A stretch of DNA of 63,112 bases, the filler included, from Rozella allomycis CSF55 (taxonomy: Eukaryota), in assembly GCA_000442015.1 (NCBI GenBank). It is 9 parts of 9 records of this genome, joined end to end, with 100 filler letters (N's around TTAATTAATTAA, not from the genome) between each part and the next. Parts side by side here need not be neighbours in the genome. Positions count along the whole stretch, not along the records: positions 51,746 to 54,388 come from KE561036.1; 8 more parts are not named here. One strand, given 5' to 3'. The translations under genes and the position numbers were made by a program. How positions within the stretch are numbered: position 1 is the first letter of the stretch; the number at the start of each line of letters is the position of its first letter. Under the pieces are notes generated by a model that was not told the DNA's origin, did no database searches, and was given only the letters and a program-made list of their open reading frames with translations. Shown here in pieces: positions 3,253 through 60,795 of the stretch.

Positions 3253-3801
3253 TTATAAGCGGACTATATCTGAAAGACCAATAAAGTTCTTCGTTTCGAC
3301 TGCATAGACAGTCGGGGCGCCAGGCATATTGTAAATCGGCATAGATGGTCCCGCTATTGAGCCGCCAGTAGATCCTCCAGAAATAACAATATCTGCACAA
3401 TTCATGTAGTATTCAGGCTGGCCTGAGAGGACAGGAATCCAAGACCATGCAAAGACTGCTTTTCCGTTAGGTGCATTCGCCGGTATTTGGACAGAAAATG
3501 ATCGTTGAATTGGACATTGCTTGTCAGTGACAGACAAGACGGTAAATGAGTTTCCTCCGTCATAAGATATGGAAAATAGACAACCACCGCCTCCATGAAC
3601 AGCTTCTCCTGAAATGCTAACTTGTAGTGGCGACCCTGCCTGCACTGTCGTTGGCGAAGAACCGGCTGGTACTCCTTGGCATAATGATTGTGCAGGAGAG
3701 TTTGTTGTACCAGGTCTTGATGGAGGTGATGTCATGAGCATATGGCATTGAGACTGATGTATCATGCAAGAGCAAAACAATAGAATATATATATAATTCA
3801 T
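3253..3801 (-). CDS. Secreted lytic polysaccharide monooxygenase, AA11-like
   Basis: ATG at 3801; signal peptide MNYIYILLFCSCMIHQSQC followed by N-terminal His (HMLMTSPP); HGGGGCLFSISYD, CP, GKAVFAWSW and EYYMNCADI motifs typical of AA11. Confidence 0.8.
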   Translation of the reverse strand: MNYIYILLFCSCMIHQSQCHMLMTSPPSRPGTTNSPAQSLCQGVPAGSSPTTVQAGSPLQVSISGEAVHGGGGCLFSISYDGGNSFTVLSVTDKQCPIQRSFSVQIPANAPNGKAVFAWSWIPVLSGQPEYYMNCADIVISGGSTGGSIAGPSMPIYNMPGAPTVYAVETKNFIGLSDIVRL

Positions 3802-27272: not shown

Positions 27273-27372
27273 NNNNNNNNNNNNNNNNNNNNNNNNNNNN
27301 NNNNNNNNNNNNNNNNTTAATTAATTAANNNNNNNNNNNNNNNNNNNNNNNNNNNNNNNNNNNNNNNNNNNN
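27273..27372. other. Artificial contig linker (N44-TTAATTAATTAA-N44); same linker at 30189-30288, 42406-42505, 45381-45480, 51646-51745, 54389-54488, 58929-59028, 60696-60795
   Basis: Identical 100-nt spacer with stops in all six frames, repeated eight times; genes are truncated at these points. Confidence 0.98.
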
Positions 27373-29670: not shown

Positions 29671-30384
29671 ATTCTAATGCTTTTTATAGACCATTGCCTT
29701 GAAGCAAAGGCGAGAGTAACAAAGAGAATATTGTTTATTTGCACAATTCACATTACATTTTACCAACATCCGAAGCGCTTATTGAGTAGTTTTGGCTCAA
29801 ATGACAACTCAGAGGCACTCGTTATAACAAATCGGCCGACTCAATATGGTGATCAATTCTATTGATGACAACCGCTTACTACCATGGAAACTCCGCTGTT
29901 AGTATTACAGATTTACCCATGACTATTTTATCCACATCCGAAAGTCGAAACGCTTAAATTGTAGTTTAGACCCAGAAGACAACGTATAAGCATGCAAAAT
30001 AAAAAATATCACTCATTATTGGCATCATGCATGGTTCAATTCTATTATTTTGGAAAAGAGTTGCGAAAATAGTTTGTTTATGAATACATTGATTTGAGGG
30101 AAATTTAAATGTTTTTTTATATTTAAATTAATTTATTTAAAAAATTACTACATAGTATTTCTTGAAAAGATTCGGGAAAATGATTTTANNNNNNNNNNNN
30201 NNNNNNNNNNNNNNNNNNNNNNNNNNNNNNNNTTAATTAATTAANNNNNNNNNNNNNNNNNNNNNNNNNNNNNNNNNNNNNNNNNNNNAGACGTTATATT
30301 TCATTGCATTATTAACAATTAATAAGTTAAAGCCTTTTTCGAATACTTTCCTTTAAACTTAAGATTAATTAACGGGGTATTTAT

Positions 30385-42276: not shown

Positions 42277-42505
42277 CGGAGAGTGGCTGATGCACGTGGA
42301 AAAGTCGTTATTAAAAGATTACAAAGTTGATTACATCCATAAATAGATTTATTGTTCATTAATGGCACTGGGATTTACGTGTACAATAAATTTCAACGGA
42401 TGGCTNNNNNNNNNNNNNNNNNNNNNNNNNNNNNNNNNNNNNNNNNNNNTTAATTAATTAANNNNNNNNNNNNNNNNNNNNNNNNNNNNNNNNNNNNNNN
42501 NNNNN

Positions 42506-43266
42506 TCGAATGGTGGAAGAATAGTGGATTAAAGTTGGAATGGTCCAATATGGCTATGGATAGAGCTAGTTCAAATGGCCATGTTGAAGTGCTTGAGTGG
42601 TGGAAAGAAAGTGGATTAGAGCTTAAATGGAGTGGAGATGCTATGGATTATGCTAGTTCATATGGTCATATTAATGTTCTCGAATGGTGGAAGAATAGTG
42701 GATTAAAGTTGGAATGGTCTTATTCTGCAATGAATGACGCTAGTTATAATGGTCATATTAACGTTCTTGAGTGGTGGATAAAAAGCGGATTAGAGCTTAA
42801 ATGGACTGAAAATGCTATGGATGATGCTTGTTATAATGGGTATGTTGAAATTCTTGAGTGGTGGAAAGAAAGCGGATTAGAGCTTAAATGGACTGAAAAC
42901 GCTTTGGATAGAGCTAGTTCAAATGGCCATGTTAATGTTCTTGAGTGGTGGAAGAATAGCGGATTGGACTTAAAATGGACTGAAAACGCTTTGGATTATG
43001 CTAGTGAAAGAGGTCATGTTAATGTTCTTGAGTGGTGGAAGAATAGCGGATTGGACTTAAAATGGACTGAAAACGCTTTGGATGATGCTTGTTATAATGG
43101 GTATGTTGAANATGGGTATGTTGAAGTTCTTGAGTGGTGGAAGAATAGCGGATTGGACTTAAAATGGACTCATCAAGTTGTGGACGCGGTTAGTTATAAT
43201 GGGCATGTTGAAGTTCTTGAATGGTGGAGAAAAAGTGGGTTAATTCTAAATCATGTATTAGGTTAA
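42506..43266 (+). CDS. Ankyrin-like repeat protein (35-aa unit AMDxASxNGHVxVLEWWKxSGLELKW), 5' truncated
   Basis: About seven 105-nt tandem units in one frame ending at TAA 43264-43266. Confidence 0.85.
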
Positions 43267-45022: not shown

Positions 45023-45227
45023 ATGACTGAAATTTGTAAATTTCTAAATGACATAAGTGGATGATATTCAGTTCCAAGACGCTCAAAATACAGATAAGCC
45101 TTCCAATCATTCATCTAAAATCACTGTATTTCCAATAGCTCGAATGAAAAGATTTATCAAAGCGGTTTCTGATCAGTCGGTGGTTAGCCAAGATGCCGTT
45201 CTTGCAATCAATGTTGTCTCAGAATTA
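45023..45227 (+). pseudogene. Histone-fold protein (NF-YC/Dpb3/CHRAC-like) interrupted by a TIR element
   Basis: MTEIL|DD...FPIARMKRFIKAVSDQSVVSQDAVLAINVVSEL, then TCGGACGGGGAGTTTACGACC begins at 45228. Confidence 0.65.
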
Positions 45228-47619
45228 TCGGACGGGGAGTTTACGACCCGGACTTCAGAAACGATTATTGGNTGTCGATGTCCATTAACGAATTACTCTC
45301 TCAGAACTTTATACCAGGAATCCGACTGTTGTGTTTCATGTAGCATTGCTGAAATTGTGTACCTAACAGGGAACCTTCCGNNNNNNNNNNNNNNNNNNNN
45401 NNNNNNNNNNNNNNNNNNNNNNNNTTAATTAATTAANNNNNNNNNNNNNNNNNNNNNNNNNNNNNNNNNNNNNNNNNNNNATAGTTGAAGTTGGCTCTTA
45501 GACCATTCTGGAAAGGGAGTACTCAATAAAGTTAATTTGTTTATCGACGTTCATTATCTCATCTGTCACTTGGCTTATCTCTTTCTGCAAATTTACGACG
45601 TTTGCTAAAGTAGTGCATTGTGTTCTTCCTTTTTTGCGACTTTAATAACTCATAAATAGTAAGTGACTTTTAAATGGTTTGTGGGCCAAAACATTATTTA
45701 TCATTGTTTTGTAATATTTTAACACGAATGGGTTAAAAAAAATAAAGAAAAGAGAAAGCGTTCATGCTCCGCTTTTGTGGTGGAGATGATTTTGGTCCGC
45801 TAGAAAGCGGACACAAATATCTTAAAATATTTTAGAAATTTATTTAATGACCCCTGTCTTACACGGGTTAAAGCAGAGACGGAGCAACTTGAAACAGGCC
45901 CTGGGTGTTGCAAATGGGTTGTTGACGGTTTGGGATAAAAGTACAATTGGAAGATATCCTGTTGGGCTAAACGAAGTGCATCATGGCAGCCCAGACGCTT
46001 TTACAAAAATTGAATAACAAAGTATTTTATGATGTATTGTAGTTTTTATTTTGTTCTTTGAATGTGCTGATTTTTGAAAGCCATGTTTTCGCCATAAAGC
46101 CGTAATCAGTGTCCAAGACCGGAATCCATAGTCTTTCATGTTTTCTGCTAAAAGTAATATCTCTCGTATTGTTTTGCCTTTAGAATCAGCAAAGTTACTT
46201 TAATACCCAAGTTCACTATGGGAATATTCATTTAGCTTTTCATATGTCGGCCGTCATTTCTGAATAAAATTGAAATGTTGTGAATGCTTTCTTTAGACAT
46301 GTCGGCGTTTGCGGCAATATTTTTTTTTGACATCACTCATTCAGGTGTGGGACTGTCGAAACAGGTAAACTTATTCTTGGTGTTATATTAGTTTGCCGCA
46401 TGAAACTCGAAGTAGATATTGCTTCCGAAATACGATTTGGCTGACCAATTACATACTCAGGAAAAAGACCTTCCATTGAAAAGTCAACGTAGTTGGCATT
46501 TGGAAATCTCTCAACCTTTATAGTATATATAATATACTCTTACTGTTCGCTTTAACCATTCGTGATTTACTGGTGGTGTATTTGGTAAATTTCGGCTTTC
46601 AAATGGTTCACTCTTGTTTAACAATTCATAAAATTCGATTATTTCTTTCTTTTTGCATTTGTTTATTTAATTGGTTTTTGTTAGCTTGAATGTCGTTGGT
46701 TTGTTTGTTCATGCATTCAAGAAGTCGTTTGGCACGTTCTAAGCCTTCAGTTTTGTCTCAAATTTCCATTATTTTTGCCGCTATTCCTGAATACGTCACC
46801 CACTGTATATTAATTTTTGATAAACGTTCTCCGGTTACTATGAGTCCAACACCCTAAATGTTAAACCGCTGTTGGACGTATTTAAGCCACTGGCTAAGCG
46901 AAATTTGTGTCCAACACCCAAAAGTAATTGTTCAAAATTATCCCTTTGACAGCTTCGCCACTGTCGCTCATTTCGGTATCAAAAAATTTTCATGTATTGT
47001 ATGTTTGACGTCGAAACAAGTTATTTTGCTTCAAACAAATTATGCCAAAGAATAGAGTTTGACCATATTCGTTGCCACTTTTGATATCCTGACCCGCTAC
47101 CCAACCAACATCAGAATATATTTAACGATTCTGATAAAGATGCTGTCGACCGAAAACGATAACCAGTTTTTACATCCACAAAATCGTTGATATGATTATA
47201 AATGTCAAATGGTAAGACTTCAGGGGTTTCAGTAGTGATATCCGTGGCGATGGTGGGCCAAGCTAAAAGGAATAGTAAGAAGATACAATTCATTCCACAC
47301 ACACACAACTATGAGCCAGGGTCTGATTGTTGAGCCTCATTAGGCAAAATGTTTTAATAAAAAGGTTGATTTTCCAAATGCTTTAAACCTATGGGCAATG
47401 AGTATGGTAAACCGTGAAATGTGAAATCTTTAGATGGTTAACAAATTTTAGATCTAGCAATAACAAAATAGGGCATACCATTCGTCAAAATCACCATTTT
47501 ATAAAATATATAGGACAACATTGAGAATATTTTCATACTTTAAACCTAAATATGGAAATTCATAATTTAATGTTTTGAAGAAAATGGGCCCTGGCTCTAA
47601 AAGGATCATACTATGAAAG

Positions 47620-51645: not shown

Positions 51646-52963
51646 NNNNNNNNNNNNNNNNNNNNNNNNNNNNNNNNNNNNNNNNNNNNTTAATTAATTA
51701 ANNNNNNNNNNNNNNNNNNNNNNNNNNNNNNNNNNNNNNNNNNNNAGACAAATTGCACTGAATTAGGAGAAAAACTCGAAAATGCGTTTTTGCCACAATT
51801 ACTGTGAGATTAAAGTGAGTCATATATCAATAATAAATTTCTTTGTTAACTTTTATCTCTCGGCGTTATCATTGTAATCAACATTATCAGCGNTTTTTAC
51901 GACAATTACTGTGAGATTTAAAAAGTGAGTAATAAAATATCATATATCAATAATAAATTTCTTGTTAACTTTTATCTCTCGGCGTTATCATTGTAATCAA
52001 CATTATCAGCGTCATGAACGGATGGCACCCTTTGATCAACTTCGGTGAATTCTTCAAATTTAACACCATATTCTCCATTCAAAATAATCTCTATTTTATT
52101 GTCGACACTTTCACGCATCACCTCATTGATACTATCATCGAAGCACTATCATTTTCAATCTGTTCAAGATTCTTCTCAATTTCTTGGTCCGATGGAATTT
52201 TTGGACCATAAAATATATTTTATATTTAAAATTAAAATAAAAAAGGTTGAAAACATGAAATATGAAGACAAATTGTATTGAAATGAGAAGAAAACTCAAA
52301 AATGCTTTTTACCACAATCCTGTGAGATTGAAAATGAGTATCAATAATATATATTCATTTATTTAATAAATATTTATTTTTATTGTTCAAAAAATCACAT
52401 TCAAGTTCCCTACCCCGTGTACTTTTTTTTTNAAAAAATCACATTCAAACTCCCTACCCCGCGTACACTACCATCTGGAATATCTCGTCAACGACCTTTC
52501 TTACAGGACCTGAAAAAGAATATTACTTGGTATATTGGATGTTCTGAGTTCATAGACCAAATTTGAAGGAAAACGGAAGCAAAAAATGGTTAGAAACACA
52601 CATATACACAAACACACACACACACACCACTCGACAACCACCCTGTAAATCCCTTAAAGTGAGTGTATATATGAAGTGAAAATCTTATTAACAATAATCG
52701 TTTATGAAGTCCGGGTCGTAAACTCCCCGTCCGATATCTTAGTAAATATATGTACAATAAGTAGCATTGACCGACGCCAAAAAGTCTCGGTGATATTAAA
52801 GCACTTCTTATATGATTTTTACGTTTTTACGTAATTATATTTATATGTGACTCTTTTAGAACCTACCGTCATAATTTTGAGCCCTATTAACGTTGAAGAG
52901 TCACACAAAGTAAAGTTATCACAGCTTGAACATGAACTAATAAACATTTTATTTAATAATGCA

Positions 52964-53924
52964 TTAATCGAATTCAGGTAGATCTTCTAATGTCGGATCA
53001 AAGTCAAAGGGGTTTTTCTCAAGGTCCAACTTGGGAGGCACAAAGCTTTGTCCAAAATTTATTGAAGGCATTGGTGGCAATTCTCGGATTTTGATATCCT
53101 TTGAAACAAACTTGTCCCAAGGATTGATTGTTATATCGATGTCATTGAAATGAACGTTCTCAGGAAGGGTCAATTCCAATTTTCTTAACCTCTTTTCACT
53201 AGCATTGTTTTCACTGTTCCCCCCGCGTTTCCTTTTTCGGCCCGAGGTAACAAATTTATCACATTCCTCCTTTTCCAATAATTTACTTTCCCTTAACTCT
53301 TTCTTCATCAATTGACGATGTGAAAAGCCAATATCACCAAACTCTTGATTCAAAGCAACGCTTCTTGCATTGAAACATACGTGAACTCCGCAGGAAACTG
53401 CATCGACTTGTTTTTCAACATTTTCAACAAATTCTATTTCACATTTAGATTCATCTGCTCCTAAAAATAAAGAAATGTCCTATTTTACAAGAAAATCAAA
53501 TTTACATGAGGAAAATTTGGATAAAGGAATTGTTTTAGACTATCATAAACTTGAATTTGATAACTTTCATTTATCACTCTAACGACAGTCAAGAACCAAT
53601 GGTCGTTGATATGTATTGGAATTAAGGTTGTGATCCCTTCCTGTAATGTAATTTTGCTGCGATCAACGGTTTCAAAGCCGTAATGTCTCGCCTCGGCAAA
53701 GAACGAAGGATCAACAACTGCACAATTATTGCAAACATCTGTGATAAGTGAAAAGTAGTGTTTAATAATAGTGTCTTCTAAGTAAACTTCAGCATCTAGA
53801 TTCTCACTCAATTCTTTGTCGGTCAAAGGACTACAATAAAGAGAACCATAACTTACGATGTATAATCACACGGAAAACATAACACAGTGCCCAAGAGTAT
53901 GAGAAAATGTAGGAATATTTTCAT
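52964..53924 (-). CDS. Secreted Ulp1/SENP-like (peptidase C48, CE clan) protease with basic NLS-like tail, 3 exons
   Basis: Exon 1 MKIFLHFLILLGTVLCFPCDYT; GT-AG introns at 53831-53856 and 53480-53505; YLEDTII, LIPIHINDHWFL, VYDSL, KQVDAVSCGVHV; GRKRKRG and EKRLRK. Confidence 0.8.
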
Positions 53925-54488
53925 CTTACAAGGGTCCTAAAATTATGGGCCAAGACACAAGCCACTTGACAATAGAAATCCGAAAATAATCGGTAAAACT
54001 CAAGCTCATATTGACAAATCAAAACACAAATGTATAGATTGATTTAAACTAGATTTTTAGCTAATTGACATGGTGAGTACCGATTCCTCAATTAGTCAAT
54101 TTATATGGGACACATGGTGTCACATGGCAATCCAGAAAAAAAGTAAAAAGACGAAATTGATGAATATTAATAAAACTCTAAGAAGTTCTCTTGGGGTGTC
54201 GTTTTAACCTGAATCAAATATTATTTTTGAGGAAAAAATGCTTGTTTTCTGACTATGTAAATCGTCATTTCAATTGCTCATGTACTCAAAAAATATACCG
54301 GAAACCTTGAAAATGGAAAAAGAAAAAAAATATTTTCATCGAAAATCCTTTTTTGTAATAAAATTTAAAGTGTAGTAGTTAATGTCATNNNNNNNNNNNN
54401 NNNNNNNNNNNNNNNNNNNNNNNNNNNNNNNNTTAATTAATTAANNNNNNNNNNNNNNNNNNNNNNNNNNNNNNNNNNNNNNNNNNNN

Positions 54489-55005: not shown

Positions 55006-55397
55006 TCAAGTTGAAATTGAATAAACATTATTAAGTTATTACAATTTTCATGGTAGAATCTATATCAGTTCTAAAGAAATTTTTAATTATTGTGGAATCT
55101 ATTTTTTTCAGTTTAATCAATTTTAATGTTCGTGGAATCTATTTTTATCTCATCAATAATTGCTCCATCTATTCTGCAGGGGACCGGGGTACATTTTGTC
55201 AAAAATATGAGTGATAAACTCAAAAACGATATTCCATATACACAGGCAATCCATCACCCCAAAAATATAGAAACCAACCCACAAAATGCTCTCAACGAAT
55301 CTTGGACCTCAGAAGCACCCCTCTGTTGCTTAACCTGTCTCTGTCCATGCTACACACACGGCGCAATCGAAAAGCTACTAGANTTTAATCAATTTTA

Positions 55398-55895
55398 ATG
55401 TTCGTGGAATCTATTTTTATCTCATCAATAATTGCTCCATCTATTCTGCAGGGGACCGGGGTACATTTTGTCAAAAATATGAGTGATAAACTCAAAAACG
55501 ATATTCCATATACACAGGCAATCCATCACCCCAAAAATATAGAAACCAACCCACAAAACCCTCTCAACGAATCTTGGACCTCGGAAGCTCCTCTCTGCTG
55601 CTTCACCTGTCTCTGTCCATGCTACACACACGGCGCAATCGAAAAATTACTAGATGACAGTAAACCCAGTCCATCCATTTACGGAATATTAGGCTGCCTC
55701 GCTTTCTGTTGCCAATCTGAAACTCTGGGCGAAAGCGTTAGTACAAGGAGAGAAAAGTCACAAAAATTTACTGGAAAGAAACTGAAAAGTTTGTGGCAGT
55801 ATTTTTGTTGCTATCCCGTGGCTATGACGGAAGAATATATTGCTGTAAGAAATGCCAAGTTGAAGTCATTGGCAGATAAGTCTTCTAAGTGTTGA
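55398..55895 (+). CDS. PLAC8/Cys-rich family protein (5' part duplicated at 55126-55382)
   Basis: W...CCFTCLCPCYTHG...RRE...FCCYPVAMTEEY. True start may be MSDKL. Confidence 0.75.
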   Translation: MFVESIFISSIIAPSILQGTGVHFVKNMSDKLKNDIPYTQAIHHPKNIETNPQNPLNESWTSEAPLCCFTCLCPCYTHGAIEKLLDDSKPSPSIYGILGCLAFCCQSETLGESVSTRREKSQKFTGKKLKSLWQYFCCYPVAMTEEYIAVRNAKLKSLADKSSKC

Positions 55896-56626
55896 AGAGA
55901 TGTGATTGCAAGTAGTCACTAACGATGTATTTTGTGATTTTAAATGGATTTATTTTAATGTAATAAATTCAATTGTAATTTTTTCAATAATTATGTTATA
56001 TGTCGGGCGTTAGAATTCGTCTATTTTTTGGTTGATTGAACATTTGTTATTGAAAACATCAAATATTTTGATACAAATTGTTAAGGCTGTCCTAAAAGTG
56101 ACTTAAATATCGCGTTTGAATAGGAAATGAAGGGAGACGTAGTGTTGATGATGTGGTAACTGGCAATTGCAATTAGTACCACTAGCGATGTATCGTGTGA
56201 TTTGGAATTGTTTATATTATAAACGTAATTGTAACTTTTTCGGTCACTGTGACACAATACCATCAAACATGTTGATAAGATACAAATTGTTAAGGCTGTC
56301 GTAAACGTGACGTAAATATCGCGTTTACTTCTGGATTCTTCTATGTTGAATAAATTGCTTTCTTTCAAACGTCATCGTTTCCTCTTACATCTATTAAACT
56401 GTTATTAACTTATTACTTATTAGTCAATGGTGTTTGCTTTCATTTTGAACTCGAAAATACCATTACCGATAGCTTTCGACAAAATCTCAATGACAAGATG
56501 AGTCGCCAAAACACTGTCAATAAATAATAATAAGTAATAAATACATTATTTTACAAAATATCTAATTTTTATTGTTCAAATCTCATTGCAAACTCCCTAC
56601 CCCGGAAAAGATTATTACTTCGATAA

Positions 56627-56881
56627 TCGGACGGGGAGGTACGACCAAGACTCCAGACACGAATCGTGTTAACACTATTTTCACTTCGATTACACATTCA
56701 CTTTAAGGGATTTATACTGTTGACCAGGGTAGTTGTCGAAAAAGATTATTAATTCGATTATTGGGTATTGGGAATTCACAGACTTAGATTGGGACACGGT
56801 GTAGATATAAGAAGTGAAAATGTCATTAACTCAACATGCCAAAGTCGCTTCTGAAGTCCAGGTCGTAAACTCCCCGCCCAA
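56627..56881. mobile_element. About 255-bp MITE with ~30-bp TIRs (TCGGACGGGGAG...); related ends at 45228-45270 and 52631-52734
   Basis: Left TCGGACGGGGAGGTACGACCAAGACTCCAGA and right TCTGAAGTCCAGGTCGTAAACTCCCCGCCCAA; about 110 nt of left-end homology with the reverse complement of 52631-52734. Confidence 0.75.
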
Positions 56882-58928: not shown

Positions 58929-59028
58929 NNNNNNNNNNNNNNNNNNNNNNNNNNNNNNNNNNNNNNNNNNNNTTAATTAATTAANNNNNNNNNNNNNNNN
59001 NNNNNNNNNNNNNNNNNNNNNNNNNNNN

Positions 59029-60693: not shown

Positions 60694-60795
60694 TGNNNNN
60701 NNNNNNNNNNNNNNNNNNNNNNNNNNNNNNNNNNNNNNNTTAATTAATTAANNNNNNNNNNNNNNNNNNNNNNNNNNNNNNNNNNNNNNNNNNNN

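Follow-up and report, generated by a model that had tools for sequence, protein, structure and literature searches.

A gene of Rozella allomycis CSF55 encodes what is, to judge from its sequence, a strongly diverged Ulp1/SENP-type cysteine isopeptidase of family C48, clan CE, and a first exon of 68 nucleotides (nt) probably supplies this enzyme with a signal-like N-terminus. The gene lies on the minus strand at positions 53924..52964 of the window, that is, of the whole 63,112-nt stretch of DNA analysed here (assembly GCA_000442015.1), and it is almost certainly a real nuclear gene of R. allomycis with the C48 fold. R. allomycis lives as an obligate endoparasite in the water mould Allomyces, its lineage stands next to the microsporidia, and it serves as a model for an intracellular eukaryotic parasite taking control of another eukaryote; to our knowledge, next to nothing has been learnt about the proteins with which it manipulates its host. 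Among bacteria, deconjugating enzymes of clan CE are established tools for that purpose. An earlier reading of this DNA, called the original prediction below, had proposed that the gene encodes a secreted effector with which a eukaryotic endoparasite targets the nucleus of its host, and the species is indeed such a parasite. The reading that we favour is a broader one, in which this C48 isopeptidase would be exposed to the host, whether secreted or tethered at the surface; we advance it tentatively, as falling somewhat short of an even chance.

Gene structure and intron size

The gene comprises three exons on the minus strand, together 909 nt, which encode 302 codons followed by a single terminal stop. 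Exon 1 (53857..53924, 68 nt) starts with an ATG at 53924-53922 and contributes 22 full codons plus two bases of a split Ser codon, which make up the signal-like N-terminus. Intron 1 (53831..53856, minus strand, 26 nt, GTAAGT...TGTAG, phase 2) separates it from exon 2 (53506..53830, 325 nt), which encodes the N-terminal half of the C48 domain, including His100 (53601-53599) and Asp119 (53544-53542). Exon 3 (52964..53479, 516 nt, of which the last three are the TAA stop at 52966-52964) carries Gln155 (53410-53408) and Cys161 (53392-53390), and encodes the last helices of the C48 domain and then a tail of about 100 residues that is predicted to be disordered. Between these two exons, intron 2 (53480..53505, minus strand, 26 nt, GTAAAT...AATAG, phase 0) divides the catalytic domain between the active-site Asp and the Gln/Cys pair, so that an active enzyme depends on both splices. 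Exon 2 lacks its own start codon: no Met precedes the active site, and a stop at 53866-53868 ends the open frame on the upstream side; therefore, exon 2 cannot stand alone. The GC content of the gene (0.363), and that of its third codon positions (0.33), are similar to those of other genes in the window.

A simple tally of GTAA[AGT]T…YAG distances gave too much noise for an intron size to be read from it, and it was replaced by a count based on 81 neighbouring same-strand pairs of open reading frames (ORFs) in the window, bridged in frame by GTAA..AG segments. Thirty-three of the 81 pairs could be joined in frame, and the shortest bridge measured 26-31 nt in 23 of these 33 (intron 2 of the gene among them), with a mode of 26 nt, which occurred seven times; bridges of at least 72 nt were found in only five of the 33. 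As the 26-31 nt class dominates the bridges and its mode is 26 nt, both introns of the gene belong to the normal size class of this genome. The in-frame joining of a 5' exon to the protease across two introns, as had been proposed from the DNA, is supported at sequence level by this analysis, since both introns have 26 nt, the usual size in the window, and the spliced product is one open frame of 302 codons.

A diverged protease domain of the Ulp1/SENP type

An exhaustive HMMER search with exon 2 retrieved a public protein of 279 residues (P0004), described as 'hypothetical protein ROZALSC1DRAFT_31917, partial [Rozella allomycis CSF55]' and derived from a 989-bp contig. Exons 2 and 3 equal P0004 at 278 of its 279 residues, the single difference being Thr235 in the window for Ala in P0004, and the public protein is spliced at the identical intron-2 junction (…NFPH|DISLF…). 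The Pfam, fold and database searches reported here used either P0004, which corresponds to exons 2 and 3, or single exons; exon 1 lies outside them.

P0004 matched the Pfam family PF02902 (Peptidase_C48) with 36.3 bits (E 7e-9, cut-off 20.7), and the C48 domain is already flagged by precomputed Pfam annotation on this public partial protein. When the exons were scanned singly, exon 3 reached 21.1 bits to Peptidase_C48 and exon 2 gave no PF02902 match. The catalytic motifs appear as DHW with His100, YDS with Asp119, and KQVD with Gln155 six residues ahead of the SCG that holds Cys161. In a sequence search of the PDB, human SENP5 was the best match (E 3.5e-5), followed by SENP3 and SENP1, and the alignment to SENP5 pairs IHINDHW with IHLEVHW, YDS with YDS, and KQVDAVSCG with QQKNDSDCG, which places His, Asp, Gln and Cys in their canonical positions; the His and the Asp are also invariant in alignment A1. 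Hence, the compact C48 domain with intact His, Asp, oxyanion Gln and Cys that had been read from the DNA is confirmed, both by the PF02902 score above its cut-off and by the alignment of all four residues to SENP5.

Structure comparison, for which the model was a weak one, pointed in the same direction. Foldseek searches with the AlphaFold model placed SENP5 (E 4.7e-5, probability 1.00) and Ulp1 (E 3.2e-4) at the top, and the bacterial enzymes OtDUB, XopD, SseL and CidB further down, at E 1.4e-3 to 8.2e-3, along with the NEDD8 protease DEN1. The ElaD/SseL family (PF22102) was matched at only 13.4 bits, where the cut-off is 27, and without significance (E 0.071). In an Atlas feature search, C48 clusters made up 28 of the 30 matches, the nearest being short C48-only proteins of about 180-220 residues, including proteins of plants and arthropods.

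The signal-like N-terminus and its exon

Codons 1-19 (53868..53924, minus strand) encode Met-Lys followed by an uncharged hydrophobic run at residues 3-19, a candidate signal peptide or signal anchor. The 17 residues of this run have a best 15-residue Kyte-Doolittle mean of 2.59, with a charge of +1 ahead of them and of -3 over the next 15, where an acidic stretch follows; no second hydrophobic segment was found in the 302-residue protein (best 19-residue window elsewhere, 1.12). This layout, with a positive N-terminal side, a short hydrophobic core (h-region) and an acidic C-terminal side, is in sequence terms that of a signal peptide or of a type II anchor, and predicts a lumenal or extracellular protease domain. 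Among 860 ATG-started frames in the window with at least 22 codons open, only two pass the same criteria, the gene studied here being one of them; for this reason, T-rich non-coding DNA is no easy explanation for the run. Provided that exon 1 belongs to the gene, entry of the protein into the endoplasmic reticulum (ER) is likely.

As for the exon itself, its ATG is preceded by an A at position -3, and a GTAAGT donor follows directly after its last base. Twelve ATG-started, stop-free segments on the contig are able to reach the intron-1 acceptor in phase; among them, exon 1 is the only one that gives an intron of 26-31 nt, and it has the best donor. The public protein P0004 begins at the first full codon past the intron-1 acceptor, which suggests that another gene finder chose the same acceptor. 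We therefore consider that exon 1 is probably the true first exon. No competing first exon turned out to be preferable to the one first proposed, given that exon 2 lacks a start and is closed upstream, and that exon 1 alone yields an intron of the usual size.

Immediately upstream lies an ORF of 27 codons (53929-54009, minus strand), which starts with an ATG at 54009 and ends with a TAA four bases ahead of the ATG of the gene; the same ATG starts an alternative first exon that is weighed below.

At a distance, the window also holds an ORF (3256-3801, minus strand) resembling a lytic polysaccharide monooxygenase (LPMO) and matching AA9 weakly, at a level short of the cut-off of 27.8 bits (20 bits, E 7e-4). 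Its N-terminus is short, hydrophobic and rich in Cys, Ile, Leu and Phe, ends in a Cys right before a His, and resembles that encoded by exon 1. LPMOs require His as first mature residue, which suggests that this His is the mature N-terminus and that signal peptides of Rozella can look like that of exon 1. The ORF is probably the secreted AA11-type LPMO of R. allomycis, an enzyme noted in an excerpt of the review PMC6690862.

The C-terminal tail

Two basic stretches, RKRKR (residues 212-216) and KRLRK (residues 227-231), lie 10 residues apart at 53180..53239 (minus strand), within the low-confidence tail that follows the C48 domain. The NLS-like cluster announced for this region is accordingly present, and by its motif it looks like a classical nuclear localization signal (NLS). 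The tail had no Pfam match, and an Atlas search with P0004 residues 175-279 gave no usable match. Towards its end, the tail also contains an Asn-Pro-Phe (NPF) triplet at residues 287-289 (53005-53013, minus strand), followed by acidic residues, which in our assumption resembles the EH-domain-binding motifs of endocytic proteins.

Comparison with known systems

The Ulp1/SENP enzymes of family C48, represented by human SENP5 and SENP3 and by yeast Ulp1, share with the Rozella protein the PF02902 match, the order of the catalytic residues, the Gln six residues before the Cys and a basic motif of nuclear type, and SENP5 and Ulp1 are the first matches to its predicted fold. The Rozella protein differs from them in bearing a signal-like N-terminus instead of a long regulatory N-terminal region, in a C48 domain that begins only about 12 residues past the hydrophobic run, in a Tyr for a Trp of SENP5, in the low identity to SENP5 (23%), and in a disordered tail of 100 residues with acidic and basic stretches.

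The bacterial clan CE effectors XopD, SseL, ChlaDUB, OtDUB and CidB have the same protease fold, and they resemble the proposed logic of the Rozella protein, in which a deconjugating enzyme made by a parasite acts on ubiquitin-like modifiers of the host; XopD is described as acting in the host nucleus in the review PMC3355726. Unlike a protein with a eukaryotic ER signal, these effectors are exported by type III or IV systems, and eukaryotic SENPs resemble the Rozella protein more than these bacterial enzymes do.

By its proposed architecture, the protein can also be likened to the RiNLE1-type effectors, which combine an N-terminal secretion signal with a C-terminal NLS. According to an excerpt of PMC8048545, this family has a homologue in R. 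allomycis, so that a signal-plus-NLS architecture is not unprecedented in this species; the same excerpt describes RiNLE1-like proteins as lacking a known domain, whereas the gene studied here carries an enzyme domain.

Lastly, stand-alone and transposon-borne Ulp1-like proteases occur in plants, fungi and animals, and the short C48-only proteins that form the nearest Atlas clusters may be of this kind. The Rozella gene differs from them in being apparently single-copy and intron-bearing, with neither a transposase nor terminal repeats found on its 2,643-bp contig.

A proposed host-exposed isopeptidase and its alternatives

In the reading that we favour, the 68-nt exon would give the enzyme a signal-type N-terminus with positive charge on its N-terminal side, and the protease domain would pass into the ER and finally lie outside the parasite, as a free protein or as one that an uncleaved anchor retains at the surface. 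Exposed to host material in that position, the enzyme could strip host conjugates of a ubiquitin-like modifier, for which SUMO is the likeliest candidate. Should the protein reach the host cytosol, the RKRKR…KRLRK cluster in the disordered tail might, as a more weakly founded step, import it into the host nucleus; the nucleus is where most SUMO conjugates are found. Action inside the host nucleus, if secretion is granted, appears to us possible but slightly more doubtful than not. The complete chain, in which an active SUMO-type (C48) isopeptidase is secreted, crosses to the host cytoplasm, is imported by its NLS and strips SUMO from host chromatin or from defence regulators, we regard as decidedly unlikely.

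A number of observations weigh against a host-exposed enzyme, or against single steps of that proposal, and the competing explanations draw on several of them. With regard to the enzyme, the AlphaFold model, built on a 4-sequence alignment, is a weak one, with a mean predicted local distance difference test (pLDDT) of 56.4, values of about 55-84 per 10-residue block in the core (residues 1-177), and values below 50 at residues 178-279. The template modelling scores (TM-scores) to SENP5 in the Foldseek comparison are only 0.34-0.49, at 23% identity. In addition, a Tyr stands at the place of the SENP5 Trp before 'LND', which we take to be one of the two Trp that clamp the Gly-Gly tail, and this difference may matter for substrate handling.

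With regard to the first exon, exon 1 is not part of the public model P0004, and codon statistics do not show it to be coding: the log-odds per codon are -0.09 for exon 1 in frame, +0.068 for the alternative exon and +0.184 for the whole coding sequence, and the segment is too short for these values to separate exon 1 from the alternative. That alternative, the next most reasonable of the 12 candidates, starts at ATG 54009 and uses a GTAAGA donor at 53929 with an intron of 99 nt. As to the basic cluster, an NLS is normal for housekeeping SENPs, ordinary SENPs being nuclear too, and it fits a nuclear SENP internal to the parasite equally well. All of this is in line with a first competing explanation, in which the protein is a fast-evolving additional SENP/Ulp paralogue that acts in Rozella's own nucleus by means of its NLS, and in which the apparent signal peptide results from a misassigned first exon or from a 5' region rich in T whose translation is hydrophobic by chance. 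The closest solved relatives, SENP5 and SENP3, are nucleolar, which agrees with such a role, and the more distant relatives P0005-P0007 show no signal-like N-terminus by reading. However, the alternative start requires the 99-nt intron in a window where 23 of 33 bridges measure 26-31 nt and only five reach 72 nt or more, whereas exon 1 combines the best donor with the modal intron length, and a signal-like frame arises rarely by chance (2 of 860). Moreover, a divergence so extreme that only four matches at E<=1e-3 were found in 1.84 billion is unusual for a housekeeping enzyme. Taking both sides together, we consider a parasite-internal nuclear SENP rather unlikely, while still giving it serious weight.

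With regard to secretion, the signal-like character was called by our own hydropathy and charge criteria, and the sequence offers no convincing cleavage site. The sole site compatible with the -3/-1 rule falls after Cys16, within the hydrophobic run; cleavage behind residue 19, 22 or 23 would meet Phe, Asp or Tyr at -3, or else a Pro at +1. The classical signal peptide of the original prediction is consequently retained in part: the positive n-region, the h-region and the charge layout are there, and a canonical cleavage site after the hydrophobic run is missing. Given that no good -3/-1 site follows the run, a membrane-tethered form is as plausible as a free secreted one. The same finding opens the way to a second explanation, in which the protein is a protease of the parasite's own endomembranes, the run being an uncleaved anchor in the ER, the nuclear envelope or the plasma membrane, and the enzyme never being free for the host nucleus. 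An uncharged run of 17 residues is long enough for a thin membrane of ER type, and an NLS can also serve proteins that reside in the inner nuclear membrane. On the other hand, the charges of +1 before and -3 after the run predict that the C48 domain would be lumenal or outside, away from nucleoplasmic SUMO conjugates, and the strictly hydrophobic core of 15 residues has the length of a signal-peptide h-region and not that of a typical anchor. An endomembrane protease of this kind is, in our estimate, unlikely.

With regard to the destination, secretion alone does not place a protein in the host cytosol, because Rozella sits in a compartment; it occupies this compartment within the host and phagocytoses host cytoplasm, as stated in an excerpt of PMC6317583. 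An extra crossing step is needed, and what a secreted protein would encounter first is not the host nucleus but the boundary of that compartment, or host material already engulfed. Of the secreted, host-nucleus-targeted effector that had been proposed, the signal-like N-terminus, the intact C48 domain and the NLS-like cluster remain standing, and what tells against it is the lack of a good cleavage site together with the boundary that lies before the host nucleus.

Copy number and the question of a mobile element

No second copy of the gene was found in the 63-kb window. Out of 1.84 billion representatives, the exon 2 search returned only four proteins at E<=1e-3, each 144-324 residues long, and only the protein itself fell below 1e-10. 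At 90% clustering, no paralogue was found among proteins of 153-489 residues, the only hit being the protein itself with the 279-residue form as representative, and no paralogue was found at 50% clustering either. Of 820 candidates among proteins of 301-2000 residues compared with exon 3, none reached E<=0.01, which gives no evidence for a longer fused form. When P0007, the most similar relative other than the protein itself, was used as query, it retrieved only itself. The gene is apparently single-copy, and the paralogue count that had been called for thus gave no close paralogue in the window or in the protein-cluster searches. There is no sign of an expanded effector family; the gene is a lone and very divergent one, which is a further point against a role as a host-directed effector.

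Some DNA transposons, Polinton-like elements and large DNA viruses encode Ulp1-like proteases of clan CE, and a third explanation would make the gene a relic or a domesticated protease of a mobile element or virus, with no host-directed role. Several features agree with it: the gene has a 2.6-kb contig to itself, the end of which is repetitive (tandem units of 119 nt and 44 nt at 51787-52466, and short matches to other contigs of the window), it has very few sequence relatives, and its Atlas look-alikes include short stand-alone C48 proteins of plants and arthropods, clusters which we presume to be linked to mobile elements. Against such an origin, there is neither a second copy in the window nor a paralogue at 50% or 90% clustering, and the four exon 2 matches, at 144-324 residues, include none that is fused to a transposase. 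No inverted repeats flanking the gene were found on the contig, and none of the 11 other ORFs of this 2,643-bp contig reaches any Pfam cut-off. Furthermore, the 26-nt introns and the base composition are of host type, the best match in the viral structure library (E 3.5e-3) is weaker than those to the cellular SENPs (4.7e-5), and the reading frame and the four catalytic residues are intact. A mobile-element or viral origin without a host-directed role therefore seems very improbable to us. The concern, raised at the outset, that the protease might be the tail of a transposon ORF finds no footing either, as no transposase or terminal repeats were found on the contig, no second copy in the window, and no fusion to a transposase among the four exon 2 matches.

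Novelty and significance

What is new here is the proposed 5' exon and the signal-plus-SENP-plus-NLS architecture that would result from it. In the literature, judged mostly by titles and by the starts of abstracts, we found no description of a secreted C48 protease of a eukaryotic parasite, and a literature search found no paper dealing with Rozella together with Ulp1. A protease survey of Babesia lists C48 entries that are ordinary SENPs, and the literature on SUMO proteases and effectors in the host nucleus, by title and opening of the abstract, deals with bacterial effectors or with eukaryotic effectors that bind a host SUMO ligase. If the complete chain up to the host nucleus holds, the gene would provide a eukaryote-against-eukaryote counterpart of XopD-type effectors, obtained from a SENP domain to which a single 68-nt exon has given an ER signal, and a eukaryotic parasite and bacteria would have converged on the SUMO system as a target. 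One catalytic Cys would then offer a simple enzymatic handle on how Rozella reprogrammes Allomyces. At the level of annotation, the public gene model is 5'-partial, and the missing 68-nt exon alters the predicted location of the protein; more generally, where introns measure 26 nt, members of a secretome can escape notice because their first exon is extremely short. For these reasons we present the gene as a clean and cheaply testable candidate, not as a demonstrated effector.

The contig and other features of the window

The window consists of nine separate contigs chained by eight linkers of the form N44-TTAATTAATTAA-N44, located at 27273-27372, 30189-30288, 42406-42505, 45381-45480, 51646-51745, 54389-54488, 58929-59028 and 60696-60795. 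The positions of the N runs and the linker sequence delimit the contig of the gene (51746..54388, 2,643 bp, no strand assigned), which has a linker at each side. Since the window is made of joined contigs, gene order across the linker points is artificial, and the genes that lie beyond them (an SMC fragment, PLAC8 genes and retroelement-like ORFs) are not true neighbours.

Downstream of the gene, 51746-52470 and 52594-52625 consist of repeats without coding content. They include two units of about 119 nt (51787-51892 and 51894-52011, 87% alike) and a 44-nt tandem pair at 52379-52466, and an (AC)n-rich tract also lies downstream. Tandem and dispersed repeats at the contig end probably explain why the contig is so short. 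In the same direction, a 45-nt segment (52692-52736) is 98% identical to 45226-45270 on another contig, where it lies within an ORF, and a 100-nt segment (52646-52745) has 79% identity to 56615-56714 on a third contig; both segments may represent a short dispersed repeat. An Rfam scan of the contig of the gene gave no matches at E<=0.1.

Single N's occur at 360, 19406, 43111 and 55383, and several of them are flanked by near-identical direct duplications of coding sequence. In an ankyrin ORF of 1005 residues, for instance, a stretch of 38 residues is repeated on both sides of an X, and two PLAC8-like ORFs (55117-55398 and 55389-55895) have the same start. The duplications beside the single N's look like unmerged overlapping contig ends or alleles, not true tandem duplications. 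Finally, an ORF at 42508-43110 (plus strand), the 5' end of which is cut by a linker, encodes ankyrin-type repeats with a recurring 'LEWWK.SGL.LKW' pattern.

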